Positions 908 through 32,323 of a DNA stretch of 33,024 nt are shown here, piece by piece (the first letter of the stretch is position 1; every line of letters begins with the position of its first letter). Position numbers and translations under genes: made by a program. The notes below the pieces were generated by a model. It made no database searches. It had not been told where the DNA came from and saw only the letters and a list, made by a program, of their open reading frames with translations. Source of the stretch: Candidatus Saccharimonadales bacterium (GTDB lineage Bacteria; Patescibacteriota; Saccharimonadia; Saccharimonadales; UBA10212); contig DASRGY010000070.1 in the NCBI GenBank assembly GCA_035650795.1, positions 1-33,024 of the forward strand, read 5' to 3'.

Positions 908-1909
908 ATGGAAAATCAGAATCAAACACCCCAACCTGTGCCTACTGAGAGTTTAGAGAATCAGGAAACACAACCACCTGTTACATCTGGACCAGCTTTA
1001 GGCTCTACCGGATCAACCAGTCCTAGTAGCCCTCCGGCTAGAAACTCATCTGCTGAAGAACTAGTTAAGCCCTCAATAGTAACTCGCCTAAGAGGGTTCT
1101 TAAATATTTATTTTTTGATATTTATCGCTGTTTTTATTGCGGCTGTAGTTGGCCTCTTTTTCGTTTTGCACGGTGGTAAGAAATCGTCAAGTAATACGAA
1201 AACAACTTCTTTAACAACCAAAGAAATTTCTCAGCTACAAGGTAGTACCACCATAGTTGGAGACGCCAAACAGAACCTTGATGTACAAAGCAATACGCTT
1301 TTTGAGGGCCAAGTTCTGCTTAAAGACGACTTAAACGTTGCCGGGAATATAAAGGTGGGAGGCAATTTAACTCTTCCAACACTTACGGTTGGTAATACAG
1401 GGAGCTTTGGTCAATTACAGGTTAATAACACTCTTTCTGTTTCAGGAAATCTAACTACTGGCGGGCAGGCATCTATCCAAAAAGGCCTAACCGTAGCTGG
1501 CAACGGCTCTTTTAGTGGTAATTTATCGGCCAATCAGCTGACGATAAGCAGTCTGCAGCTTAATAGTGACTTGGCCGTATCGCATCATATCGTTACGAGC
1601 GGAAATGCGCCTTCAAAATCAGACGGGTCAAACCTAGGTAGTGGTGGCACGGTTTCTATGAGTGGCACAGACACAGCTGGAACAGTAACAATTAATACTG
1701 GTGGCGGGCCGTCATCGGGCTGCTTTGTATCGGTAAATTTCGGTCACAGTTTTAGCACAACCCCTAGGGTCATTATTAGTCCGGCAAATAGTTCGGCCGC
1801 CGGTCTAGATTACTATACAAACCGTTCGGCAAATAGCTTCAGCATTTGCACGACAAGCACACCAACAGCTTCTTCGACCTTTGTATTCGACTATATAGTT
1901 ATCCAGTAA
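908..1909 (+). CDS. Hypothetical membrane-anchored surface protein with a low-complexity N-terminus, one TM helix, a beta-helix-like G/N/L/T repeat region and a C-terminal lectin-like domain
   Basis: 333-aa ORF with TM helix IYFLIFIAVFIAAVVGLFFVL. Degenerate repeats are present: NVAGNIKVGGNLTLPTLTVGNTGSFGQLQVNNTLSVSGNLTTGGQASIQKGLTVAGNGSFSGNLSAN. The C-terminal ~90 aa (VNFGHSFSTTPRVIISP...FSICTTS...FVFDYIVIQ) resembles the H-type lectin pattern, which is a weak call. Confidence 0.65.
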   Translation: MENQNQTPQPVPTESLENQETQPPVTSGPALGSTGSTSPSSPPARNSSAEELVKPSIVTRLRGFLNIYFLIFIAVFIAAVVGLFFVLHGGKKSSSNTKTTSLTTKEISQLQGSTTIVGDAKQNLDVQSNTLFEGQVLLKDDLNVAGNIKVGGNLTLPTLTVGNTGSFGQLQVNNTLSVSGNLTTGGQASIQKGLTVAGNGSFSGNLSANQLTISSLQLNSDLAVSHHIVTSGNAPSKSDGSNLGSGGTVSMSGTDTAGTVTINTGGGPSSGCFVSVNFGHSFSTTPRVIISPANSSAAGLDYYTNRSANSFSICTTSTPTASSTFVFDYIVIQ

Positions 1910-2171: not shown

Positions 2172-4348
<2,177 letters not shown>

Positions 4349-5751
4349 TAGTGGCTTGAGCTTTTAAGTTGTCCCTGATGCTGGCGTAATCATTGTCAGA
4401 CTTAATAAGAGCAGCTGATTGGTTCGCTAATTTTTTAAGACCAGTAACGTTAATGCCAGCCGAAGGATCAGTATCTAACAAGATATCAAGCATCATTTGT
4501 TGTGCTAATAAAGTATATGCTTCGCCGGGCAGTTGAGTCATAAGCTCATAGAAGTATCGACCTCTGATCATATCCTTTTGTGCGGTCAGAGCTAGCTCCG
4601 TGCCGAATTGAGCAAACTGTTTAGCTTGATTAAAGGCTGCAAGAGTCTTCATCACACGGCCCATCTGATCTATTTGTCGTTTAGAATGGCCTCGGCCACC
4701 AACACGTGTAACACTTAAACCGACATTAACGGCCGGCCTTAGGCCTTCTCTGAAAACATCCATGTCCAATATCCACTGGCCATCAGTAATTGACATAATA
4801 TTGGTCGGTAAGAAAGCTGCAATGTCACCGCCTTCTGCTAGAACTAGCGGGATCGCAGTCATACATTTATGGTTTCTACCTAATTTGCCCGCGCGTTCAA
4901 GTAATGATGAATGGGCATAAAAAATATCGCCGGGGTAAGAGTCACGACCAGGGCTAACCCCAGAAATTAAGGCTATTTCTCGGGCTGCATGGGCATGGGT
5001 TGTGAGATCATCATAAATTACAATGACGTCTTGTCCGATAACCTGCCATAAATATTCTGCCAAGGCACAGCCAACATATGGTGCAAGATAGCTGCTTACA
5101 AGCGACTCAAAAATAGTAGACACAACTACTATCGTTTTCTGCATACTGCCATTCTCGCTGAGATGTGAAAGAAGCGTATCAACATCACTTTCGCGCTTGG
5201 CAATTAGTACATATACAACAATCTGATCGGTGTTCTTCTGATTTAAGGCGATCTGAGTTGCCAAAGTAGATTTACCGGATTTACTGTCCCCCAGTAATGC
5301 TAAGCGCTGGCCGCGCACAATCGGGAACAAAGCATCTATGGAAATAACACCCGTTTCTAGCTGGGTATCGAGCATCTCGCGCTCATAAATTGGTGGCGCG
5401 GCATTAAAGATTGGCCACTCAGCATCAGCCGGGATTGGTCCTTTACCGTCGAGCGGATCCCCAGCTACAGAAACAACGCGTCCGATAAAATCTTTGCCAA
5501 CCTTGGTGTTCAACCTATCAGTTTGAACAACGGCTAACATCCCTGTTTTAAGGTTCGATGAGCCTAGATATAGTACCTGCACCTCATCTTCTAGAATATA
5601 TTGAACAAAGCCTTTGCTACCGTTTTCAAAAATAACTAACGAGTGAGCATTGACTGGTTGCATGCCCCGTACAGTAACTAAGAATTTATTAACTGATACA
5701 ATCTCGCCAACAGGGTGGCCGGCATCAACAAACCTCTGAAAGTGTTGGTTC

Positions 5752-6249
5752 CTACCTCTTTCCACCCACTGCTCCTTGAATAAGCTCTACCATATAGTTT
5801 TCCTGATTTTCAAGATAGGTGCGTAAGCTAAGATCGAAAATCTTGTTCGGTGATCTTAACACACAACCGGCAGCAATAGTGGGCTGTAAGCCTATTTGCA
5901 GCATAAGTTGGGGATGGATATTGCCGCGCATCCAGCTTAGGATGACATCAATGATTCTGGGCGTAGGTTCAACAGCAAAGCTAATGTGAAGACTTGGAGC
6001 TGTTCTAGAAATTTCGATAAGTTTTGTTTTAATTGCCGTCCTTTGGTCAGTCTGCATAAGATTGTAGCCGTTATCTCGCGCCAACTGATCAAGCATATAT
6101 GTAGTTCTAGGTGCTTTAATTGACTCACCACTCTTACGCGCAGCAGCACTCATAAAGAAATCATCTAGCCCGTCGAGCTCACGCAATATACGGTTAATGT
6201 CGCTTTTACCGACTATACTTGTTGGCAGCTTAAAGACATCTTCGTTCAT
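5752..6249 (-). CDS. atpH: ATP synthase delta (OSCP) subunit
   Basis: 165-aa ORF between the b-like gene and atpA. It overlaps both neighbours by 4 nt and 14 nt. The assignment comes mainly from position and size. Confidence 0.7.
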   Translation of the reverse strand: MNEDVFKLPTSIVGKSDINRILRELDGLDDFFMSAAARKSGESIKAPRTTYMLDQLARDNGYNLMQTDQRTAIKTKLIEISRTAPSLHISFAVEPTPRIIDVILSWMRGNIHPQLMLQIGLQPTIAAGCVLRSPNKIFDLSLRTYLENQENYMVELIQGAVGGKR

Positions 6250-6890: not shown

Positions 6891-7679
6891 TTATATCTTT
6901 AGTAGCAAATATACCCCAAGCAGCCCCATAATTAAAACCATCGCGGCTGCTCCAATCACTGCGAACAAGCTTTTCATAATCCCGTGACGACTCAGTGGAT
7001 TGCGACCTATGGCAATCATTCCATTTCTTATACCAGATGCCATGAGGATTATTGATATCAATCCAGAGATCATAAATATGCCTAGGGCAACATAAATCCG
7101 TAATCCTGAGACTGACTTCCCGGCAACAGACTGGCTAATCTGACGCAAAGGTTCAGGTATGGGTACTGCTTCCTTGATAAGCGGGTTTTTCGCCAGTGCT
7201 ATTTGGACGGCTATTAGCCCTACATCCGAGCCCTCTGATGTATGAACTATGGCACCGCTTTTACCATCAAAGGCTTCTTGAGCACGACCTAGGACAAGAG
7301 GTTGTTGGCTATCAGCTTTTGCAGCAACGCCATCGGCAGAGCTCATCGATAAGTAATCACCAGCTTTAATTGTGCCATTTTGAGTACTAACAAATACCGG
7401 ATAGATACCATTCGTGGCAACAAATACCTGTTGATCCTGTTTTTGTACGGCTAGCGGAGCGTCGTTTGGATCTATTACGACTCCATACATCTTTGCCGGG
7501 TCTTTTGCCGGTGCTAAGACAACGCTATTCTTATTATCTGAGCTAAGGGCAACAACCCACCCGGGCGGTATGTAGGATTTAGTATTAAAACCACGGACAA
7601 CTGTTTCTGCGTGCACTAACTCGAACGACAAAACGACAAAAACAAAAGTCAAAATTACGCCGAACAGTTTCGATCTCAT
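6891..7679 (-). CDS. Secreted-domain protein with a C-terminal two-helix hairpin resembling an ATP synthase c subunit; occupies the atpE position
   Basis: The signal peptide is MRSKLFGVILTFVFVVLSFELVHA, followed by a soluble domain of about 165 aa. The last 71 aa (about 6894..7106) form TM-loop-TM with a GIRNGMIAIGRNPLS loop. This resembles the c-subunit G-rich helix 1 plus the A-x-[AG]-R-[NQ]-P loop. Helix 2 (IMKSLFAVIGAAAMVLIMGLLGVYLLL) contains no Asp or Glu. The gene ends 15 nt upstream of atpF. Confidence 0.6.
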   Translation of the reverse strand: MRSKLFGVILTFVFVVLSFELVHAETVVRGFNTKSYIPPGWVVALSSDNKNSVVLAPAKDPAKMYGVVIDPNDAPLAVQKQDQQVFVATNGIYPVFVSTQNGTIKAGDYLSMSSADGVAAKADSQQPLVLGRAQEAFDGKSGAIVHTSEGSDVGLIAVQIALAKNPLIKEAVPIPEPLRQISQSVAGKSVSGLRIYVALGIFMISGLISIILMASGIRNGMIAIGRNPLSRHGIMKSLFAVIGAAAMVLIMGLLGVYLLLKI

Positions 7680-7759
7680 TACTCTTAAGTATATATGTTC
7701 TCAGCTTCTTCTCCCAAACAAGCTACAGCCTGACTATGGTGATTGATCATAATGCTTAG

Positions 7760-9679: not shown

Positions 9680-11143
9680 CTATATAGCTTTTGCTTGGCT
9701 CAAATTTGTTTTCTCGGATTTAGGAAAAAGTGGCCCAGGTAAAGCTTTAATTACACCGCTGCCAAAAACATTTTGAATTTTAGTTGCAGCATCAGGCATA
9801 AACGGTAGTAATAGTTCGGCGATTTCTAGGAGTGAGGCTACCATGTAAGCCAAAACCTCTCGCAAGTGAACCTCATCTTTATTCTTCGCTACCTGCCAGG
9901 GTTTTGTCTCATCTATATACTGATTCAACCCCCGGACCTGTTCCCATACCTCATCTAGTGCCTTATCGAAACGACAATCACTAAGCGCAGTCTGATATGA
10001 CGCAATGTCATGTTCTGGCGCAGGAATATCGCCGACTATTCCTTGCTGATATTTAGTTACCATGGCTGCTGTACGAGATACTGCATTGCCGAGCTGGTTC
10101 GCCAACTCATCATTGTAGGCTGCCTCCATTAACTCCCAGGTAAAATCACCATCCCCGTAACTTGGAACATGTCTTAGCAAGAAATAACGTGCTGCATCAA
10201 CACCATACTTATTAATTAAATCCAGAGGATCAACTACATTGCCTAAACTTTTGCTCATTTTTTTACCGCCAACTTCTATGAATCCATGGGCGTAAAGCGC
10301 TTTAGGAAGTGGCACGTCTAACCCTAGCAGCATTCCCGGCCATATAGCTGCGTGGAAGCGTAGGATGTTCTTACCTATAACTTGTACATCAGCTGGCCAA
10401 TAAGTCTTAAAGTCTGAGTGCTCGGGGTAGCCCAAAACAGTTATATAATTCATGAGCGCCTCAAACCACACGTACATAACCTGAGTTTGATCACCGGGTA
10501 CGGGTATACCCCAATTGATCTTGCTAACTGGGCGGCTGATACTAATATCTTCAAGGCCGCCATTTAGAAGCGATAATATCTCGTTTTTTCGACTATCTGG
10601 GACAATTCTATAGGCATCACTTTCAATCGCAGTTTTGATTTTGGCGGTAAATTTACTCAGAGCAAAAATATAATTTTCTTCTTTAACCCATTCATACTTA
10701 CGGTTGTGATCCGGACAAACGCCTTTATTAGCCTTGACAATTTTTTCGCTAAAAAATTCTTCATCGCCAGTGCAGTACCAGCCTTCATATATCCCTTTAT
10801 ATATATAGGAGGACAGCTTTTGCCAAATTAATTGTGCTCTTTGTTCGTGGCCTTTATCTGATGTCCGGATAAATCTATCATTGCTGATATTTAAGGCCTT
10901 TAGCAGATCACGGAAAGATTGGCTGAGACTGTCAGCAAATTGTTTAGGATCCATCTTGGCTTCGGCAGCTTTTTCAGCAATCTTGCCTCCATGTTCATCT
11001 GTGCCGGCGCTAAATAATACTTGGTCACCAAGTTCACGATGATAGCGTGCTAAAACATCTGCATATAAATGCAACATTGCGTGGCCTAAATGAGGCTTAT
11101 CATTTACATACGGAATAGCCGTACAAACATAGAATTTTCCCAT
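9680..11143 (-). CDS. metG: Methionyl-tRNA synthetase, short form without a C-terminal tRNA-binding appendix
   Basis: The HIGH motif is PHLGHA and the KMSKS motif is KMSKSLGN. The connective-peptide knuckle reads YCTGDEEF...CPDH. Confidence 0.95.
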   Translation of the reverse strand: MGKFYVCTAIPYVNDKPHLGHAMLHLYADVLARYHRELGDQVLFSAGTDEHGGKIAEKAAEAKMDPKQFADSLSQSFRDLLKALNISNDRFIRTSDKGHEQRAQLIWQKLSSYIYKGIYEGWYCTGDEEFFSEKIVKANKGVCPDHNRKYEWVKEENYIFALSKFTAKIKTAIESDAYRIVPDSRKNEILSLLNGGLEDISISRPVSKINWGIPVPGDQTQVMYVWFEALMNYITVLGYPEHSDFKTYWPADVQVIGKNILRFHAAIWPGMLLGLDVPLPKALYAHGFIEVGGKKMSKSLGNVVDPLDLINKYGVDAARYFLLRHVPSYGDGDFTWELMEAAYNDELANQLGNAVSRTAAMVTKYQQGIVGDIPAPEHDIASYQTALSDCRFDKALDEVWEQVRGLNQYIDETKPWQVAKNKDEVHLREVLAYMVASLLEIAELLLPFMPDAATKIQNVFGSGVIKALPGPLFPKSEKTNLSQAKAI

Positions 11144-11195
11144 CTGTTACATAATAAACAATAAACGCTAAACTATAAACATCCTGAGAAATCCA

Positions 11196-11217
11196 AATAC
11201 TTAACTCGTTAAGTATT
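11196..11217. repeat. Palindrome AATACTTAAC-tc-GTTAAGTATT, third copy of the AATACTT/AAGTATT half-site pair
   Basis: The arms are perfect 10-bp inverted repeats. The palindrome lies 1 nt after the Nudix-like stop codon and 53 nt upstream of the metG ATG. It uses the same half-sites as the palindromes at 20099..20120 and 20579..20600. Confidence 0.7.
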
Positions 11218-11218
11218 T

Positions 11219-11740
11219 CTACATCAAAGATAGTGCACAGTCGATTGCATAAGCCAGATCATCTAAGTTCTCATACGAGGCAAGCTCGCTCCGTTTAATC
11301 CAGATGAATTCTGTATGTTCTTCATTAAGTCTTATAGCAGGCTTCTCTTTTAACGAAACTAAACATGGAAAGACTATATAGCTTCTTTTTTCTTTTGGAT
11401 TTTTTAGAGTATATGAATTTCCCATCTTAATCTGAAAACCTTTAACGGACACAGACAACTCTTCCTTAATCTCCTGTTTGGCTATTTCTTTAACCGGTTT
11501 GGGCTCATCAATAAAGCCATTAACTGTCGACCAATATCCTTCCGCGTCTGCCAGACCGTAGCCTCGTTTTACTAGTAGTATTTTTCCTTCATAAACTACT
11601 GTACACATAACAATTGGAGCAATTTTAGCGTTAGTATAATTTACATATTTGCCTTTATATAATCCATACTTCTTTAAAGCTTTTTCAAGCCAAAGTTTAA
11701 GCTCTTTTTCTTCTATACCTTCCGAGATTGTGTAATTCAT
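11219..11740 (-). CDS. Nudix-like hydrolase
   Basis: A Nudix-box-like segment GFIDEPKPVKEIAKQEIKEELSV is present, with QEIKEE in place of RExxEE. I moved the start from the ORF-track Met at 11755 to the Met at 11740, because the longer ORF overlaps the tRNA-Val 3' end. Confidence 0.6.
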   Translation of the reverse strand: MNYTISEGIEEKELKLWLEKALKKYGLYKGKYVNYTNAKIAPIVMCTVVYEGKILLVKRGYGLADAEGYWSTVNGFIDEPKPVKEIAKQEIKEELSVSVKGFQIKMGNSYTLKNPKEKRSYIVFPCLVSLKEKPAIRLNEEHTEFIWIKRSELASYENLDDLAYAIDCALSLM

Positions 11741-11745
11741 ATAAT

Positions 11746-11822
11746 TGGTGGGCAATATAGGACTTGAACCTATGGCCTCAGCAATGTGAATGCTGCGCTC
11801 TAGCCAGCTGAGCTAATTGCCC
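11746..11822 (-). tRNA. tRNA-Val, anticodon CAC, with encoded CCA
   Basis: Manual cloverleaf of 77 nt: GGGCAAT TA GCTC AGCTGGCTA GAGC G CAGCA TTCACAT TGCTG AGGCC ATAGG TTCAAGT CCTAT ATTGCCC A CCA. Confidence 0.9.
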
Positions 11823-11847
11823 CCTCTATCCCCTAAATTATAGGGAT

Positions 11848-13158
11848 TCAAGATTTATCTATAAAGTCTTGGCAAAAGCGCTCAAAGACTGCGTTGGTCC
11901 ACCCAAAACCTGTCTGCGAGGGATAAACTCCTTTAGCTGGCGGCTTATTGGGTTGAACTACATTATACTTCTCTAAAAATACGCCGTGTTTGTTAAACCA
12001 AACCAGATTTGTTCTAAGCCATTTTAAGGCTATCCGACGAGCTTCGTCTTGATAACCATATTTTTGCAGAGCTTTTACCACTATAAAGTGTAGCGGCGCC
12101 CAACCATTCGGATACGCCCACTGCGTGGGCAGTGCACCAGGCACCAAACTGCTAACCTGCGGAGCATCTGTGGTGGCAAGACCTCCCTTTTTTTCAAACT
12201 TTTTTAGACTGTTTACAAGTCGCGCAGCCTGACGGTTGTTAGCCAGTCCCGCCCACATGGGATAATAAGCTGCTAACGAAGCGACACTGCCTCTGCTCTT
12301 TTTTACATAGTTGTAATCATAATACAGACCACGGAGTTCGCTCCACATTAGACTATTCATAGCCATTAAACGGCGGTGTGCTGCACGATCCCAGTTATCT
12401 GCATGTTGCTTGTTGCCTAAAATCTTGGCTGCAGCCGCAAAGTCTTTCTCGTATTTATAAAGTAACGAGTTGAGATCGACTGGTAGATAGTTAAGAGCCT
12501 TGCGCCCAAAACGTGGTGTCATATCCCAGCCGCTTTCAGCCTCAGCCAGATCATGAAGATAGTTAAAATCATAGTAGCGACTCAAACCTTCGTACACTTG
12601 GCGGGCATGGGGTTTACGAACACCCATCCAGACATCATTGTATTCATCTTCAGCCACCTTAATCGAACTGGCTAGCCATTTCTTATCAAGATTAAAAACA
12701 CTGTAAGCTTCCATTATCAGCGAGCTTAAAAAAGGTGGGTGTGAATGGGCCAAATAAAATGTTCTTGAGCCATTAGGTATAACCCCGAATTTTTTATACA
12801 TAAATATTAGATTTTCAATCATTCCTATAACAAGATCTTTGTGGGTTTTATCCATCATGCACTGAGACATAAAATAACTGTCCCAGTAATACATCTCGTC
12901 ATAATCAAATTCGTGCCCGGCTTCAAACGATGGAACTAAGTAAGCCCGCGGCAATCCAACTAGGCTGTCTTTATCTTTTGGATTGTATCGGGTTAATTTA
13001 TCCCAATAAGCAGCAATATAATCGCGGGCTGGTTGCACTTCCTGGGCTGTCAAATTCAGGTGATTCGGCCTCATCAAATGAGGTAATTTATTGGTTAGAT
13101 TTTTTGCTTTTTGTAACACTACAATAAGAAGCCTACGCCTATTAAATCGGATTATCAA
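11848..13158 (-). CDS. Alpha,alpha-trehalase, GH37 family
   Basis: Both trehalase signature regions are present: EMYYWDSYF and PTQWAYPNGWAPLHF. The true start may be the internal Met (MRPNHL...). No clear signal peptide is present. Confidence 0.85.
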   Translation of the reverse strand: MIIRFNRRRLLIVVLQKAKNLTNKLPHLMRPNHLNLTAQEVQPARDYIAAYWDKLTRYNPKDKDSLVGLPRAYLVPSFEAGHEFDYDEMYYWDSYFMSQCMMDKTHKDLVIGMIENLIFMYKKFGVIPNGSRTFYLAHSHPPFLSSLIMEAYSVFNLDKKWLASSIKVAEDEYNDVWMGVRKPHARQVYEGLSRYYDFNYLHDLAEAESGWDMTPRFGRKALNYLPVDLNSLLYKYEKDFAAAAKILGNKQHADNWDRAAHRRLMAMNSLMWSELRGLYYDYNYVKKSRGSVASLAAYYPMWAGLANNRQAARLVNSLKKFEKKGGLATTDAPQVSSLVPGALPTQWAYPNGWAPLHFIVVKALQKYGYQDEARRIALKWLRTNLVWFNKHGVFLEKYNVVQPNKPPAKGVYPSQTGFGWTNAVFERFCQDFIDKS

Positions 13159-14294: not shown

Positions 14295-16013
14295 TTATCT
14301 CATACTGCTTATAGCACTACCTACGGCTCTAACAGCAACTTGCTGGACTTGCACATCCCTTTCTGTTCCGCCGTTAATCCATGCCGCAATTTCGTCTAAG
14401 TGTTGTCTTAGAGCTTGTCCTGCATGGCGTTCACAGTCGACAATTATCCGTCTGTCTGACCATCCTGGATGAGCATGACGCAAATCTTTGACTCGTCTTT
14501 TTGCCCAATGAGCAAATGTTCCTTTACCTGTCTCATAATACCCATAGACCGATGTAATGCCGTCTTCGTTCCTGTAAACAGAAAAATCTTCATCGCTTGG
14601 CACTGCAACAGCACTTTTAATTTCTGACTCTGTTTCGTCTGATATTCGTCCAGGACAACTATCTTTCAGAAACTTCAACAACTTAAGCATCTGCTCACGA
14701 GCAGTAACAACATGCTCCCCGTCAGGGGACAAGACATTGGCATCAAATCCTTCCTTTGAAACAGCAACAGTATTTTGGTGGGCTATCGCAAGTGTCTCAG
14801 CCGTAGTTTCCTTGGGTAAGATTATTGACAATTCCTCAGCCAGGTCACTATACTTTCCAGTCCTGCGGGCCTCTTGAACAGTTTCAATAAAGGCGTTCAT
14901 AAGTTCGGTAGTAGCCAAAATACGTGGGATGTTATATCCCGCGGTATCCTGTGCACAGATTTCTACTGTCCCTAAATCAAGTCTCAAACGATCCCTATGA
15001 TGCCCAGCTACACGTGATGGATTAGGGATTTCACCCGTACGTAACATCTCATCCATTTGTTCATATATAGCTTGTTCGGTTTCAGGTAAGGGGTTCTTAT
15101 AGACACCTCCACTAGGAGAAGCATGTGTCCGCAAAATATTTCTAACAGATAGCCAGCTTTCATGATCGAGTCTGATACCCTCTTCATCAGTCATATTTTC
15201 CGCAATAACGTCGGTTGAGGATAACATCTTAGCCAAGTTTGGGTTAACCTGACCTTCAAAATGAGGAGCGGCTAGGGATGTTGCAAATAAAAGATGCGAA
15301 ACTGCCTGGTAGGCGTTAAGGGTTTTGGCTGCTAACCCTACGTCACTACACTCGAAGTGTATTTGGTCACCCGTTACCACAAAATGCTTAGTACGACTCC
15401 AGCCCATTCTGTCTGGATTAAACATCACCCCTAAAATATAGTTATGGTAAAAAACATCTTGCGGAGTCGCTTCGCGGCTAGCAAAGGTACTATACGGACT
15501 GAAACTCAAGTTATGCTCAGCTAGTTGGCAATCAACATCCAAAATAGTTCTGTGCAAATTAGCTACAGCCTCGCGGATTGATTCTCCAGGGTCTACTTTT
15601 GGCTCTAGAATGTTGTTAGTCATCTCTGGGCTGCCGTCATATTCTTTGCCCAAAAGCTCAGCGACTGGTGCGTAGGGGGTGTAAGCCTCATATGGTGAAT
15701 CTGAAGGTAAATGAACTCCTACTTGCTCAAGCGGCATATTAACGGCAACTTCAGGCTCATGCCCGGCTGCATAGCCTCGTTCTGGCTCGCCAAAAAGCTT
15801 CAGTTCAACCCGGCCTACATTATTTCGCCATGCTGGATGCGCAAAATATCCCACTGGCCTGCCATCTTCGCCATATATCAACCCCCCGCCTCTCAACGGA
15901 TCAGAGTCTGGGTGACGATAATAGCCCCAAGACTCAATAACATCATCTGCCCAGCCTGCTGGGTATTCTGTAGATTCGTATTTATGACTGCTATTTTCGG
16001 TTTGCTCCGCCAT
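14295..16013 (-). CDS. Hypothetical enzyme, divergent glutamate-cysteine ligase family 2 / carboxylate-amine ligase-like, with N- and C-terminal extensions
   Basis: 572-aa ORF. Several segments align by eye to YbdK/GCS2 landmarks. ILEPKVDPGESIREAVANL corresponds to the E-x-x-T-x-P block, and GDQIHFE to the G-x-H-V-H block. LLFATSLAAPHFEG corresponds to AL-S-A-N-SPF, and RLRLDLGTVEICAQDT to R-P-x-x-GT-x-E-x-R-x-x-D. The Arg of that last block is replaced by Cys. The family call is tentative. Confidence 0.45.
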   Translation of the reverse strand: MAEQTENSSHKYESTEYPAGWADDVIESWGYYRHPDSDPLRGGGLIYGEDGRPVGYFAHPAWRNNVGRVELKLFGEPERGYAAGHEPEVAVNMPLEQVGVHLPSDSPYEAYTPYAPVAELLGKEYDGSPEMTNNILEPKVDPGESIREAVANLHRTILDVDCQLAEHNLSFSPYSTFASREATPQDVFYHNYILGVMFNPDRMGWSRTKHFVVTGDQIHFECSDVGLAAKTLNAYQAVSHLLFATSLAAPHFEGQVNPNLAKMLSSTDVIAENMTDEEGIRLDHESWLSVRNILRTHASPSGGVYKNPLPETEQAIYEQMDEMLRTGEIPNPSRVAGHHRDRLRLDLGTVEICAQDTAGYNIPRILATTELMNAFIETVQEARRTGKYSDLAEELSIILPKETTAETLAIAHQNTVAVSKEGFDANVLSPDGEHVVTAREQMLKLLKFLKDSCPGRISDETESEIKSAVAVPSDEDFSVYRNEDGITSVYGYYETGKGTFAHWAKRRVKDLRHAHPGWSDRRIIVDCERHAGQALRQHLDEIAAWINGGTERDVQVQQVAVRAVGSAISSMR

Positions 16014-18673: not shown

Positions 18674-18924
18674 ACAGCATCGTCTAGCTGTGAAGGATCT
18701 AAGCTCTTGTCAATTGACTGTGCGTCTAGAGACTGACTCGCAGCCTTAACATCAGCTGCTGATGTAGTCTTATTAGCAGGCGTAGTAGATGTTGATACAC
18801 TATTTGATGCAGAATTATGGCTGTTATAGACTCTATAAGCTACCAGCCCAACAGCAAGAAGTATTGCCAGAAAAAGAAAGAGTTCAAAAACACCAAATCC
18901 TAAATTGTTTTTTTTGGTCTTCAT
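18658..18924 (-). CDS. Small type IV pilin-like (class III signal peptide) protein
   Basis: The N-terminus is MKTKKNNLG|FGVFELFLFLAILLAVGLVAY. It shows a basic leader, a Gly at -1, Phe at +1, Glu at +5 and a hydrophobic helix. The mature part is only about 79 aa and is S/T/A-rich. The start overlaps the upstream stop (TAATG). Confidence 0.45.
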   Translation of the reverse strand: MKTKKNNLGFGVFELFLFLAILLAVGLVAYRVYNSHNSASNSVSTSTTPANKTTSAADVKAASQSLDAQSIDKSLDPSQLDDAVQSLL

Positions 18925-19577
18925 TACTGCTCCCCTCCAGCGCTAATTAAACTTTTCAGTACAGCTTTAACTGCTGCTTTATACGCTAGTAGATCTGTTT
19001 TTGCCTGTGAGGTTGCAGCTCTAAAGGTTGCGACGTTCTGGGCCACTGTATCGGTTGTGCAGTCAATATTAACATTTAAGGATTTCAATGCATCTACCGA
19101 AGCCTTGGCTTTAGCTTGAGCATCGTTTGCAGTCGAAACTAGCTGGTCAAAGTTTGCTGGGCTGACATTGTGGTTTTTTTGGTAGTCAAGTCCTTTCTGG
19201 AAAAAACTATCTATTTTTGTCTCAAAAGCCGAACCGTTTTTTTGGATTTGGTTAAGTTTGGTCTCTAAGCCATGCTTAGCGGCTTGACAATTCTTGGCCT
19301 TTTCCTGCACTGTGTGCTGTTGGACTTTTGCTTTCAATTCGGCCAGAAATAAGCTACCGCTATGCTCGGCATCTGTCTTGGCTTTCTCCTCATCAGTCTT
19401 TTGTTGTTGGGAGCTATTTTTATCTGTATCTGATGATTGAGCTTGATTTTGAGCAGTATTATCTGTGGTAGTAGTATCGCCCCCATTGCCATCTTCAGCG
19501 ACCGCCATAGCAGGAGTCAGAAGTAGCAAGAAAGCTCCTACTATCATCAATAGGCCGCGTATCTTTATTTTTTTCAT
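18924..19577 (-). CDS. Secreted alpha-helical, coiled-coil-like hypothetical protein
   Basis: The start is placed at the internal Met, giving signal peptide MKKIKIRGLLMIVGAFLLLLTPAMAVA. The remainder is K/A/Q-rich helical sequence. The ORF-track start at 19640 adds 21 aa that do not look like a signal peptide. Confidence 0.6.
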   Translation of the reverse strand: MKKIKIRGLLMIVGAFLLLLTPAMAVAEDGNGGDTTTTDNTAQNQAQSSDTDKNSSQQQKTDEEKAKTDAEHSGSLFLAELKAKVQQHTVQEKAKNCQAAKHGLETKLNQIQKNGSAFETKIDSFFQKGLDYQKNHNVSPANFDQLVSTANDAQAKAKASVDALKSLNVNIDCTTDTVAQNVATFRAATSQAKTDLLAYKAAVKAVLKSLISAGGEQ

Positions 19578-19649
19578 TTTTATTCCGTTTATATTTAGAA
19601 TTATACTGCTTAAAATATTATACGCTTCGATTAATTGCAATAGCTAATC

Positions 19650-19680: not shown

Positions 19681-20076
19681 TGGTGGAGCTGGCGGGTATT
19701 GAGCCCGCGTCCGCCGGTTTAGCTAACTAGCTTTCTACAGGCATAGGCCATTTACAAAATTCAGAAACATAACCGATAAATGGCCAAAATGTTATGTTTC
19801 CTATTCCTAAAACTTAGCAGTTCTGTCGGAAAACCAGATCTGCGCAACCAGATTATATGACACGCTGATGGCACTATCTGATGTCGCGCCAGGCGTGGTT
19901 ACAGAAATTAAGCTGTAACTGGTACGGCAACTGGGAATAAAGCAGCAGCAAAGCTGTTTACTCGATCAGCTGCACGTGAAAAGATGTTTTTTGCATCTAA
20001 TCAAATTTGCCTATAACGCTGACAAGCGACCTGCAGGCTAGTTGTTAAAGACCAACGTCAAGCTGTAATCAGCCCC
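19681..20076 (-). ncRNA. ssrA: tmRNA (ssrA), one-piece
   Basis: The 5' end is GGGGCTGATTACAGCTTGACG and the 3' end is GGACGCGGGCTCAATACCCGCCAGCTCCACCA. The acceptor stem pairs GGGGCTG with CAGCTCC and includes the G3-U70 pair. A T-arm and CCA are present. An internal ORF ends in Ala-stop. Confidence 0.9.
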
Positions 20077-24796: not shown

Positions 24797-25984
24797 CTAT
24801 TGTGAGCTTGCAGAAGCGCCTGCAATTGTGTTTATCAGTTTCTTGATGTTGTCACCATTCGTCATTTTGGTATCTTTAACTCTTAGGACGGCCAAAGAAC
24901 CACCCCCGGACAAATTAGCTGTATAAATATCGCCGAGCACATTGCCTTGGGCATCTTTTGTTTTTAGCTGGGCAATAACTGCATCATTAATCTTAGTGGC
25001 GTCAGTAAGTGGTCCTTGGTCACAAGTTACGGTCGTAGGCGAATCTACTCCAGCTGATGTACTGAAATGTAAGAGCATCTTATAAAACTTGCTGTCGTTT
25101 GTCCCAACGCACCATTGCAGATAGTCGTAATAGAGGGGAGTGCGAGCAGACGGCAGATATTTTGAAGACGTCATCGCAATCTCTATATCCTTATTAGTCG
25201 CAAAGTGAACTAGATAGGCGTAAGTACCATCGGATTTCTTATCTCCTCCTCGCTGACTAAAACCGGGATCGGTGGTTGTAGTTGGAGCGCCCCAATCAGT
25301 TGGGTAGGCAAACACCACTGGTGTACCAGTGGGTTGGTATTTTGTGAAGCCAGTAGGCAAGCTAGACTGATTGACACTAACAGGCTGACTATTGGAAGAG
25401 TTAGGGGAGTTACTGCTAGCGTCAGCGTTTGACTGAGTATGGCTAAATATATGAAAAGGTAGAACGTCAGTCTTTGCATCTACCGCTGCATAAATTCCAG
25501 CCAAGATAATGAGTGCTATAACGACCCACGCCCAAATTCGCGGCTGATGGTGGTAAGCTGTACGTCCTGCAGGAACATGAAGTTCCGCACCACTATTGTC
25601 ATCAGAGTTAGATTCTTTTTTTGATTTGCTAGCTAAATCGTCTTGGTGCTCTGAGTCAGGCAAAGAAGTACTGTGCCCGAATAGGCTGCTTCCGGTGGTT
25701 TTGGAATCAGATAACTCTCCATCAGTGGTTTTAGGGGATGGATTCCATGCTGGGCTATCTTCATATGAAGCTGAATTGTCGCCCAAGTTAGGAGTATGCG
25801 GATGCGGTTTCTCATCTGGAACTGAATCTTCAACAGCAAGGCCGGCTGCAGCATGGGCTTCGTGCGTACCTTCTCTAAGCATCGGGTCGGGCATCATTGG
25901 ATGATGACCAACTATAACTGGCTTTGAGGTTGGGTGTGGATGTGGTTTACTTACGTCGAAAAATTTTTTGCCGTCTTCTTGCAT
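24797..25984 (-). CDS. Hypothetical single-pass membrane protein with a His/Pro-rich disordered N-terminal region and a C-terminal extracytoplasmic domain
   Basis: 395-aa ORF. The N-terminus is KPHPHPTSKPVIVGHHPMMPDPM followed by low-complexity sequence. The TM helix is IWAWVVIALIILAGIYAAV, followed by a Ser/Asn-rich linker. The folded C-terminal domain of about 190 aa has two Cys. Confidence 0.65.
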   Translation of the reverse strand: MQEDGKKFFDVSKPHPHPTSKPVIVGHHPMMPDPMLREGTHEAHAAAGLAVEDSVPDEKPHPHTPNLGDNSASYEDSPAWNPSPKTTDGELSDSKTTGSSLFGHSTSLPDSEHQDDLASKSKKESNSDDNSGAELHVPAGRTAYHHQPRIWAWVVIALIILAGIYAAVDAKTDVLPFHIFSHTQSNADASSNSPNSSNSQPVSVNQSSLPTGFTKYQPTGTPVVFAYPTDWGAPTTTTDPGFSQRGGDKKSDGTYAYLVHFATNKDIEIAMTSSKYLPSARTPLYYDYLQWCVGTNDSKFYKMLLHFSTSAGVDSPTTVTCDQGPLTDATKINDAVIAQLKTKDAQGNVLGDIYTANLSGGGSLAVLRVKDTKMTNGDNIKKLINTIAGASASSQ

Positions 25985-29522: not shown

Positions 29523-29598
29523 TGGTGACCCCAACGGGAATCGAACCCGTGTTGCCAGGATGAAAACCTGGTGTCCTAGGCCACTAGACGATGGGGCC
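29523..29598 (-). tRNA. tRNA-Glu, anticodon UUC, with encoded CCA
   Basis: Manual cloverleaf of 76 nt: GGCCCCA TC GTCT AGTGGCCTA GGAC A CCAGG TTTTCAT CCTGG CAAC ACGGG TTCGATT CCCGT TGGGGTC A CCA. A TGG-TAGAAT extended -10-like element lies at 29612..29620, 13 nt upstream. Confidence 0.9.
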
Positions 29599-30985: not shown

Positions 30986-32323
30986 TTATGGGCACTTTGC
31001 AATGTTAGGGTCGCACGGAATAGTCTTAGTAACTGTGGTTGTTGGTGGAGGTGGTGGAGGTGGTGGTGGAGGAGGTGGTGGTGGAGGTGGTGGTGGAGGT
31101 TGGGGGACTGTTTGAGTAACAGTAGTCGTAGCTGTTGTAGTACTAGGTGTTTCTTCCTGCTTATTTTTAATCTGGAAAGGTGCCACAACTCTTTTACCGT
31201 GTGATGTAAATACGAGCTTCGCTACGTAAGGATTCTCTTCTATATAGTTTGGTAAATCTACTTCACGGAGATCTATTCGAGTTGTTTCTCCCGGACAAGT
31301 AATGCCAGCTTGCTGGAAAATATAAGGATCAGGGTCTGCATCACGATTAAGCTTAATTAAGAGTTTCTTGAGAATTTGACCTTTCTTAAGGCAGCGCATC
31401 CAAACACTAAACTTATTATCTTCTACCAGTGTCTTTTCATCGTGACCTGTAACTTCACTCTTTAGAATCTTGGTGTGTATAGGAGGTACTGGTCTTGGTT
31501 TTACCGGAACAGTTACAGTTACTGTCACTGGAGGTTTGGCTGGAGGTGGGGGAGTTTTAACTGTCTGAGTTACTGTATTAGTCCTGGGTGGGCGTGGGGG
31601 AGTTTTAACTGTTACGGTAACAGTCTTAGTAGGTGGAACTTCTTTTTCCTTGGCAACTTCATTACCGCACCAGTCAATTAAAACTACTGTATATTCTATG
31701 CCGTTGTAGCTAGTAGAAAGGTACGAAGCGTCTGGACTTATCGGACGTCCACCCTTATCTGTATAGTCAATCTCTAGATTAGGCTCATATTTAACATTAG
31801 ACCCTGTCTTAATTCCGCCTGACAATCCTCCAAGATTCCAACGACTACCATAAGCAGCAACACCACGACAAATGAAAGCTGCCTGTAGTTGCCTATAAGC
31901 ACCTTCAGGTATGTGCTGATTGTGCATTATTTCAGCTTTTTTAACCTTTAACTCTTGTCTCACGTCGCCAACAGTTTGCAAGTTAGGGTAATAAGGGTCA
32001 ACATTGAAGTGACGCCATGTATTTTCTACATTTATATGTGGTTGATAAGATACTTCTCCACCACAATTTGGCAATGAGCTGAGCTTAGCACCTAGGGGCT
32101 GCTGAGGTTGAGCCAACGGAGCCGCTTCACCAACGGAGGTATTATTACCGAGCGATTCTGCAAGGTAAGCTCCTCCTCCACCTAAAGCAACAAAACTTAG
32201 GGCAGTTGCGAATCCGCGCCCTGTACGACTACGCACTAATCTATTTCCAAGACTCAATGGATTTGAATCTTGCGCCTGCGCTTCTGCGACTGCCGTAGAA
32301 CTTATGCGTTCTGGTCCAGCCAT
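30986..32323 (-). CDS. Secreted or membrane-anchored proline/threonine-rich hypothetical protein with a 19-Pro tract and a C-terminal Cys-x7-Cys motif
   Basis: 445-aa ORF. The N-terminal hydrophobic segment is FATALSFVALGGGGAYLA, followed by a Cys-containing globular region. TVKTPP-type repeats and a second globular region follow. A Thr-rich stretch and 19 consecutive Pro come next, and the protein ends TTTVTKTIPCDPNIAKCP. The SD GGAAGGAG lies upstream. Confidence 0.8.
   Translation of the reverse strand: MAGPERISSTAVAEAQAQDSNPLSLGNRLVRSRTGRGFATALSFVALGGGGAYLAESLGNNTSVGEAAPLAQPQQPLGAKLSSLPNCGGEVSYQPHINVENTWRHFNVDPYYPNLQTVGDVRQELKVKKAEIMHNQHIPEGAYRQLQAAFICRGVAAYGSRWNLGGLSGGIKTGSNVKYEPNLEIDYTDKGGRPISPDASYLSTSYNGIEYTVVLIDWCGNEVAKEKEVPPTKTVTVTVKTPPRPPRTNTVTQTVKTPPPPAKPPVTVTVTVPVKPRPVPPIHTKILKSEVTGHDEKTLVEDNKFSVWMRCLKKGQILKKLLIKLNRDADPDPYIFQQAGITCPGETTRIDLREVDLPNYIEENPYVAKLVFTSHGKRVVAPFQIKNKQEETPSTTTATTTVTQTVPQPPPPPPPPPPPPPPPPPPPTTTVTKTIPCDPNIAKCP
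31043..31099 (-). repeat. Simple-sequence tract of (CCA/CCT) x 19 encoding poly-proline
   Basis: On the plus strand I read 19 consecutive TGG/AGG triplets in the gene's frame. Confidence 0.9.
31546..31612 (-). repeat. Two perfect 19-nt direct repeats 48 nt apart, in frame, inside the Pro-rich gene
   Basis: GTGGGGGAGTTTTAACTGT occurs at 31546..31564 and again at 31594..31612. Each copy encodes the TVKTPP unit of a 16-aa tandem repeat. Confidence 0.85.

Follow-up and report, generated by a model that had tools for sequence, protein, structure and literature searches.

The DNA studied here, called the window, is a contig of 33,024 nucleotides (DASRGY010000070.1) from a metagenome-assembled genome (MAG) of Candidatus Saccharimonadales, i.e. 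of the Saccharibacteria within the Patescibacteria, also called candidate phyla radiation (CPR), and our analysis concerns an operon of seven closely packed minus-strand genes, the first of which encodes a 262-aa protein, here called X, and the others F-type ATPase-like subunits. With moderate confidence we propose that this X operon encodes a second, non-ion-translocating F-type ATPase; the complex probably works as a mechanical device that consumes ATP, not as an ATP synthase. In the list of open reading frames (ORFs) the genes follow the order X-b-like-delta-alpha-gamma-beta-epsilon, just as a preliminary description made from the sequence alone had read them (262-aa gene, atpF, atpH, atpA, atpG, atpD, atpC), and the junctions from X on are a 15-nt gap, overlaps of 4, 14, 32 and 4 nt and a 2-nt gap, in keeping with the earlier statement that neighbouring genes overlap or lie no more than 15 nt apart. 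Also as described before, X is preceded by an 80-nt gap, beyond which lies a cysteine desulfurase-like gene (Aminotran_5 in Pfam). The NCBI record for X (VFB03_03570) names it a hypothetical protein.

X, for which 792 homologues were found, was modelled with AlphaFold2 from a 90-sequence alignment (predicted local distance difference test score, pLDDT, 89.9). In the model, residues 2-18 form a signal helix, 28-164 a beta domain, 176-186 a short helix, and 192-226 and 228-261 the two helices of the hairpin; it contains both the signal peptide with a soluble domain of about 165 aa and the transmembrane (TM)-loop-TM hairpin in the last 71 aa that had been claimed previously. Ala24 is invariant in a 22-sequence alignment and nearly so in the 90-sequence alignment. 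The last 77 residues are gap-free across 120 homologues, all of which have R194, G225-R226-N227-P228-L229, G252 and Y257-L258, with L259 and L260 being nearly invariant. Because the charges of the hairpin are concentrated in its loop, its topology should be N-terminus-out and loop-in as in a c subunit, and with this topology the N-terminal extension can be exported.

By its fold, this exported beta domain resembles phage proteins. In Foldseek comparisons with the PDB its best match was the Pam3 cement protein 8hdt_G (E 6.6e-6), with further fold matches to BB1, Sf11, HFTV1, TW1 and lambda gpD/SHP, and in BFVD it matched preneck appendage and tail-fibre barrel domains (E 1.4e-8, 20-26% identity). 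At the sequence level it stayed below the Pfam thresholds for XM1_gp53_minor_capsid (PF23982; 21.4 bits vs 27) and PF09956 (13.2 vs 24). The phage cement and appendage proteins of this fold (lambda gpD/SHP, Pam3, PF23982, PF09956) are surface-exposed oligomers, whereas the X domain is a secreted cellular one, attached to a membrane hairpin and encoded in an ATPase operon, and the similarity is one of fold only. X also carries two conserved [KR]-N-P-L motifs, PGKNPL (aa 163-168, 7176-7193) and GRNPL (aa 225-229, 6993-7007), the former of which closes the beta domain and includes an invariant N165-P166.

From a transitive chain of profile comparisons, together with modelled structure, operon slot and topology, and with no one statistic being decisive, we conclude that the hairpin of X is likely to descend from a c subunit. 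Among NCBIfam models the top match of X is NF005521, a c-subunit model (E 0.022). The profile link itself emerged after CPR c subunits and a second clade of X proteins had been added. This clade 2, detected by searching with two of the X-like proteins from other CPR lineages, has at least 120 proteins, of which the few that are named belong to the ‘Patescibacteria group’ or the Woesebacteria, and seven of its members are labelled in IMG as ‘F0F1-type ATP synthase membrane subunit c’ (the COG0636 name). For the hairpin of a 269-aa X-like protein (locus L087), PF00137 (ATP-synt_C) is the best Pfam match, covering the full model length (16.8 bits, E 0.008; cut-off 24). Saccharimonadales and clade-2 hairpins align with each other over all 71 columns (hhalign 99%, P 2e-18), and clade 2 in turn aligns with 128 c subunits over 49 columns (hhalign 92%, P 6.5e-7, score 36.9), with control scores of at most 18.2 in 100 column shuffles and of 10.5 for the reversed profile. 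Compared with c subunits, both X clades combined reach 87% in hhalign and the Saccharimonadales alone 55%.

The c-like R-[NQ]-P loop noted in the preliminary description proved invariant in both X clades: GRNP is present in 120/120 Saccharimonadales and 120/120 clade-2 hairpins and aligns to the ARNP or ARQP of c subunits, and clade 2 retains a Glu at position -6, as c subunits do in their canonical motif ‘EGxARQP’. When the hairpin was modelled alone, as had been proposed earlier, its top 46 fold matches in the PDB were all rotor-ring c subunits (TM-score 0.78-0.89, best root mean square deviation 1.2-1.7 Å), with Foldseek E-values that are not significant because the query is so short. X thus shares with the c subunit of F1Fo (PF00137, COG0636) a two-helix hairpin of the same length and topology, the R-N-P loop and a superposition within 1.2-1.7 Å, but has neither the ion-binding carboxylate nor the GxGxGxG motif of helix 1, and adds a signal peptide and the exported domain.

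The loss of the carboxylate is a family trait. Helix 2 of X has no Asp or Glu, and in the hhalign alignment the Glu of c subunits faces Ala246, which is the third Ala of GAAAM, in agreement with the manual alignment by which a carboxylate-free helix 2 with Ala at the ion site had originally been proposed. Counting from the loop Pro, an acidic residue at +18, the position of the c-subunit carboxylate, was seen in 0/204 Saccharimonadales hairpins; 194 of these have no acidic residue in helix 2 at all, with five having Asp at +17 and five Glu at +12. All 120 clade-2 hairpins are free of acidic residues in helix 2, so that with both clades pooled 314/324 hairpins have none and 0/324 have one at +18.

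An a subunit is missing from the operon as well. Pfam scans of the 29 ORFs of at least 98 aa in the window detected no ATP-synt_A or ATP-synt_C, and searches with a c-subunit hidden Markov model (HMM) and with E. coli AtpB against all its stop-to-stop ORFs of at least 40 aa found neither a nor c, which for the window agrees with the lack of atpB and atpE at the operon noted previously. A one-genome-per-species scan with X had matches in 335 genomes, and in none of the 82 Saccharimonadales loci compared was an a subunit or a canonical c subunit found within 10 kb of X (1.38 Mb of flanking DNA). In the X-type operons of three other loci (L083, L087 and L089), no a subunit was found upstream of X or inside the operon using PF00119, with precomputed Pfam annotation that also included L088. 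Lacking both the carboxylate and an a subunit to supply the half-channel and the stator arginine, the complex would carry no ion and make no ATP.

One could argue that such an Fo is remodelled but still translocates ions, with polar helix-2 residues binding a cation or proton and another protein replacing a. Gln is found at +12 in 111/120 Saccharimonadales X proteins, with Glu instead in 5/204 hairpins; clade 2 has Asn at +13 in 113/120 and Thr at +17 in 97/120 members; and some genomes of the order CAILAD01 appear to have only such an F1 set. Nevertheless, these polar positions differ between the two X clades and, to our knowledge, all rotor rings with a characterized ion site use a carboxylate. 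Moreover, no protein stands out as a stator that could provide a membrane arginine: conserved charges that might take its place are absent from the b-like TM helix, and the operon has no other conserved membrane gene. All this makes continued ion translocation highly improbable.

The domains of the F1 part are readily recognized. In comparison with the bacterial F1Fo operon (atpIBEFHAGDC), the X operon has the same gene order from b to epsilon, intact F1 catalytic motifs and a delta/OSCP homologue, but is without an a subunit and atpI, and its epsilon is without the C-terminal helices. Pfam detects alpha (PF00006, 224 bits), beta (PF00006, 222 bits) and gamma (PF00231, 116 bits), and NCBIfam detects epsilon and, weakly, delta. 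This F1 is divergent, as every subunit scores below its NCBIfam equivalog cut-off (alpha, TIGR00962, 376 bits vs 484; beta, TIGR01039, 435 vs 463; gamma, TIGR01146, 93 vs 194; epsilon, TIGR01216, 50 vs 67, with E 3.3e-13 over model positions 2-79 of 130; delta, TIGR01145, E 0.0054). To judge by its motifs, however, it looks catalytically competent: the beta motifs GGAGVGKT (P-loop) and GxGERxRE (with the catalytic Glu) occur in 67/67 homologues, and the Arg-finger motif LSV[TS]R[VI]G of alpha in 59/75.

By profile comparison, the 165-aa protein is a true delta/OSCP homologue, since a profile of 15 homologues matches E. coli delta and bovine OSCP in the PDB (E 5e-5) and the protein keeps the C-terminal domain of OSCP. 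The b-like protein has no b-subunit match in Pfam or NCBIfam and its profile matches Chloroflexus b weakly (E 0.35); its TM helix is found in 79/82 homologues and its soluble part is conserved. Pairwise identities of beta are 36-55% among X-type proteins across classes and 37-41% between X-type and canonical CPR beta, and such identities of alpha and beta are too flat to prove an ancient paralogue clade.

Relatives of X were found in 335 species genomes, with the best 80 loci coming nearly all from Saccharimonadales MAGs. As far as each contig extends, all 82 compared loci show the same arrangement, MetRS-TatD-desulfurase-X-b-delta-alpha-gamma-beta-epsilon. X precedes the b-like gene in 82/82 cases, which answers the question, raised in the preliminary description, of whether its orthologues stand before atpF in related genomes. 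With this architecture being conserved over hundreds of species, the X operon is not a product of chance. A search of representatives with the beta subunit furthermore led to the three operons mentioned above, which are built alike and come from other CPR lineages, each being headed by an X-like protein (L083, 256 aa; L087, 269 aa; L089, 258 aa, from a complete Woesebacteria genome). Pseudogenization or decay could be ruled out, as each of the seven genes is intact, catalytic motifs do not vary and synteny extends over the 82 loci. In L089 (CP065002.1), a phosphoglycerate mutase (iPGM) gene at 10780-12492 is inserted between X and the b-like gene, with the operon otherwise unchanged. Three X-bearing contigs (L019, L020 and L069; one of them 562 kb long) are filed as Binatia, Babeliales and Nevskiaceae, but are probably mis-binned or mis-labelled Saccharimonadales.

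How does this operon relate to the canonical ATP synthase? The cultivated saccharibacterium Southlakia epibionticum has a canonical operon, AtpZ-a-c-b-delta-alpha-gamma-(hypothetical)-beta-epsilon, which is dispensable (PMC10633639). In its genome, the MetRS-TatD-desulfurase block is followed by YdcF and MnmA instead of an X operon, and the canonical operon lies about 300 kb away; this layout indicates that the X operon is a separate locus and not a canonical operon altered in place. According to a published BlastKOALA table (PMC12592800, Table S5), from which, rather than from our genome scan, the co-occurrence of two sets was taken, atpA, atpD and atpG are present in two copies but atpB, atpE and atpF in one in three complete genomes, namely those of Ca. 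Saccharimonas aalborgensis, GWC2_44_17 and Ca. Mycosynbacter amalyticus. In TM7x and RAAC3 each F-type gene occurs once, whereas in five CAILAD01 genomes, of which one is 99% complete, alpha and gamma are present, in most cases together with beta and epsilon, but a, b and c are absent (PMC12592800, Table S5); that study passes over both patterns without comment. A second b may fail to appear in the table because b, delta and epsilon of the X type are too divergent for assignment by KEGG Orthology (KO).

The Southlakia operon being elsewhere and three complete genomes having two alpha/beta/gamma sets with one a/b/c set, X-b-delta-alpha-gamma-beta-epsilon is probably a second, paralogous machine and not ‘the’ atp operon. 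A canonical F1Fo with true a and c subunits would then, where present, be encoded by a separate operon. Of the preliminary description, the notion of a remodelled membrane sector, in which a non-translocating c-like hairpin is fused to an exported domain, is thus supported by profiles, fold, operon slot, topology and the lack of both carboxylate and a subunit, but its treatment of the genes as the atp operon is probably wrong. It had also named a combination of findings that would speak against it, i.e. canonical atpB and atpE elsewhere in the genome together with a hairpin dissimilar to c subunits; as the similarity to c subunits exists, this combination does not occur.

Alternatively, the operon could belong to an ordinary ATP synthase with split genes, its F1, b and delta subunits pairing with products of atpB and atpE encoded elsewhere and X being a co-transcribed accessory such as an assembly factor, a regulator or an unrelated membrane protein. 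Split atp operons are well known in other bacteria, i.e. in alpha-proteobacteria and cyanobacteria, and the window hairpin itself has no significant direct match to ATP-synt_C. Yet the documented canonical Fo in this phylum shares one operon with a dedicated set of b, delta, alpha, gamma, beta and epsilon genes, complete genomes with two alpha/beta/gamma sets and one a/b/c set do not contain a split single enzyme, and the CAILAD01 bins have alpha, beta and gamma with no a, b or c at all. In addition, a c-derived X would compete for the same place under gamma and epsilon, and X is syntenic with F1 genes across CPR classes. We therefore consider a split synthase improbable. In our searches, the window beta subunit compared with 1.84 billion representatives revealed no identifiable canonical Saccharimonadales beta, and a search with a canonical CPR c subunit gave matches in Woesebacteria, Moranbacteria and Paceibacterota, but none in Saccharimonadales.

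The canonical CPR atp operon that served for comparison is that of locus L086 (5911-11612; Logan SRR21285598), which encodes AtpI, a (255 aa), c (71 aa), a 66-aa protein, b (122 aa), alpha (476 aa), gamma, beta and epsilon (76 aa). Its c subunit has the loop ARNP and a Glu at +18. It has no recognizable delta, and its epsilon is short like that of the window.

For the X complex as a second, non-translocating machine, a rotary or torsional motor is the most economical model, because parts needed only for rotary coupling are kept (gamma, that half of epsilon which binds the c-ring, the RNP loop, delta and the membrane-anchored stalk), whereas those needed only for ion translocation (carboxylate and a subunit) are gone. 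X would oligomerize into a c-ring-like rotor that is gripped by gamma and epsilon via the RNP loops. ATP hydrolysis by F1 would turn or torsionally load this ring against the b/delta stator, and the motion of the ring would move a crown of exported, phage-like oligomerization or adhesion domains on the cell surface. Such a crown might serve to remodel the envelope, to contact the host or to move the cell.

The F1-like part could also act without rotation, as a docking ATPase in which an F1-like hexamer with a gamma-like shaft and a b/delta tether sits on a pore formed by an X ring and drives export, insertion or assembly, in analogy to FliI/FliJ/FliH on the type III export gate. FliI, FliJ and FliH are homologues of alpha-beta, gamma and b-delta, respectively, FliI/SctN models are strong secondary NCBIfam matches of both alpha and beta of the X operon, and the exported domain of X has a phage appendage fold. 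What makes this analogy unlikely to hold is that alpha plus beta, epsilon and an OSCP-type delta, i.e. a full rotary set and not the homo-hexamer of an export ATPase, have been kept. In addition, c-rings of canonical size are plugged by lipid and are not open pores, and the neighbourhood conserved in the 82 loci contains no export-gate genes.

Several points weigh against a second, non-translocating F-type ATPase. Ring formation, contact of X with gamma and epsilon, rotation and ATPase activity are all predictions from sequence. The origin of the hairpin from a c subunit rests on a transitive chain and on structure, and helical hairpins in general resemble c subunits to some degree. In the profile check proposed in the preliminary description, the window hairpin itself had no PF00137 match in Pfam at E values up to 10, and similarity to c subunits was reached through clade 2; nor was a c subunit found when PDB sequences were searched with profile HMMs, and compared with eight classical c subunits, whose profile was validated against the PDB, the Saccharimonadales hairpin reached 0.3% in hhalign. 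In the absence of an a subunit, there is no evident anchor for the stalk, and the 209-aa protein is taken as a b-like stalk from its position, TM helix and conserved soluble part. Finally, that the extra alpha/beta/gamma set in complete genomes is an X-type operon is the simplest reading of the published table.

Among known systems, the F1-like ATPases of mycoplasmas come closest in concept. According to two studies (PMC11864180, PMC8406192), Mycoplasma F1-like ATPases, i.e. the Type 2 gliding-motor proteins MMOB1660/1670 and Type 3 MSC_0618/0619, are encoded by paralogous alpha/beta/gamma clusters beside the canonical F1Fo; these clusters are described there as being without a and c, and their presumed ATP hydrolysis would serve a mechanical or surface role. 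The X operon is similar in being a paralogous alpha/beta/gamma set without a and c, but the CPR system retains b-like, delta and epsilon subunits. We know of no c-derived ring protein in the mycoplasma clusters. Membership of the X operon in Types 2 or 3 could be ruled out by model scores (MMOB1660 325 vs 600, MMOB1670 357 vs 850, MSC_0619 245 vs 520, MSC_0618 389 vs 570), and with the mycoplasma models in NCBIfam the window alpha and beta subunits all score lower than with canonical atpA and atpD.

The N-ATPase (atpDCQRBEFAG) is, according to one report (PMC2881411), a second F-type operon beside the canonical one in some genomes. It differs from the X operon by its own a subunit and c subunit with a full Na+ site, by AtpQ and AtpR and by gene order; with this order and with alt_F1F0 NCBIfam models below cut-off, the X operon can be excluded from this group. 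In the literature, we found no description of the X operon or protein, of Patescibacteria c-rings or of Saccharibacteria F1-like ATPases.

Another F1-like cluster with no a subunit and no recognizable delta is present in L084 (4352-10515; GCA_050874105.1) and L085 (5199-11362; GCA_050873725.1). It encodes, in this order, a 1434-aa surface protein, a 524-aa exported Gly-rich/fn3-like protein, an 81-aa c subunit, a 269-aa b-like protein, an alpha-like protein (441 aa), gamma (261 aa), beta (453 aa), three small gene products and a 3453-aa protein. Its c subunit is a bona fide member of PF00137 (34 bits) with the loop AVGRNPETK, but has Thr at +18 in place of the carboxylate, and is matched by the X hairpin HMM (P 1e-6). 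With the exported protein and the c-like hairpin being encoded by separate genes, this cluster resembles a ‘split’ analogue of X, from whose operon it also differs by its giant surface proteins. Its carboxylate-free c subunit suggests that c-rings blind to ions could be of more general occurrence.

More speculatively, and in our estimate rather doubtfully, there could be a whole new class of CPR rotary machines, found in Saccharimonadia, Woesebacteria and others, in which F1 spins a carboxylate-free, c-derived ring with a rotating or twisting phage-like crown. Such a machine would be an ion-gradient-independent torque transmitter for surface remodelling, host attachment or predation, or motility, and could be the sole F-type complex in some lineages such as the order CAILAD01.

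In reconstructions of CPR or Patescibacteria metabolism, alpha, beta and gamma genes are routinely scored as an ‘F-type ATP synthase’, and it is debated why non-respiring epibionts keep one (PMC10633639, PMC8080830); aerobic respiration has been claimed where an oxidase and ‘ATPases’ co-occur (PMC12592800). If many such genes in fact serve an ion-non-translocating machine, metabolic inferences for the CPR, including that on aerobic respiration, would have to be revisited. The X complex would then represent a natural experiment, in which a c-ring has been stripped of its ion site and a subunit but still comes with F1 and stalk. Beside the mycoplasma gliding motor, it would also be another example of an ATP synthase turned to mechanical use, here with the membrane rotor kept and extended to the outside. 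As Saccharibacteria can now be cultivated and are genetically tractable, and as cultivated Mycosynbacter amalyticus has two alpha/beta/gamma sets, this idea is testable.

Table 1. Genes, protein regions and a putative regulatory site of the X operon, in window coordinates.
Feature	Position	Strand	Basis or remark
X, 262-aa protein: signal peptide, exported beta domain, C-terminal c-subunit-like hairpin	6891..7679	-	first operon gene
Signal peptide of X, aa 1-24, ending VHA before ET	7608..7679	-	sequence and modelled helix 2-18; putative cleavage site
Exported beta-rich domain of X, aa 25-170	7170..7607	-	fold of phage capsid decoration (cement)/appendage proteins
C-terminal two-helix hairpin of X, aa 192-262 (last 71 aa)	6894..7106	-	model and profile evidence
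Loop G225-R226-N227-P228 of X	6996..7007	-	equivalent of c-subunit R-[QN]-P polar loop facing gamma/epsilon
Ala246 of X, +18 from loop Pro	6942..6944	-	position of c-subunit ion-binding Glu/Asp
b-like peripheral-stalk protein, 209 aa	6246..6875	-	N-terminal uncharged TM helix and long conserved helical region
delta/OSCP-like subunit, 165 aa	5752..6249	-	profile match
F1 alpha subunit, 482 aa, divergent	4317..5765	-	PF00006
F1 gamma subunit, 289 aa	3479..4348	-	PF00231
F1 beta subunit, 436 aa, catalytic motifs intact	2172..3482	-	PF00006
Short epsilon subunit, 83 aa	1918..2169	-	TIGR01216; N-terminal beta sandwich only, without C-terminal helices
Promoter-like site TTGGGA-18-TATACT	7688..7717	-	consensus scan of 80-nt gap upstream of X

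The promoter-like site upstream of X (table 1) is weak evidence, since the consensus scan found fewer such sites than expected from shuffled sequence. Downstream of the operon, and convergent with its end, the window encodes a membrane-anchored protein with a bactofilin-like beta-helical region and a Ser/Thr/Gly-rich tail (908-1909, plus strand), which scores just below the cut-off of PF04519 (26.7 bits vs 27.9). In 55 of the 82 loci the operon has a bactofilin-like gene downstream, which is convergent in all but two of these. The window further contains ordinary features, i.e. a tmRNA gene (19681-20076, minus strand; Rfam, 108.7 bits) and genes for tRNA-Val(CAC) (11746-11822) and tRNA-Glu(UUC) (29523-29598), both on the minus strand. 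Four other minus-strand ORFs are without a Pfam family at E<=0.001, encoding products of 572 aa (14295-16013), 395 aa (24797-25984), 445 aa (30986-32323) and 238 aa (18924-19640).

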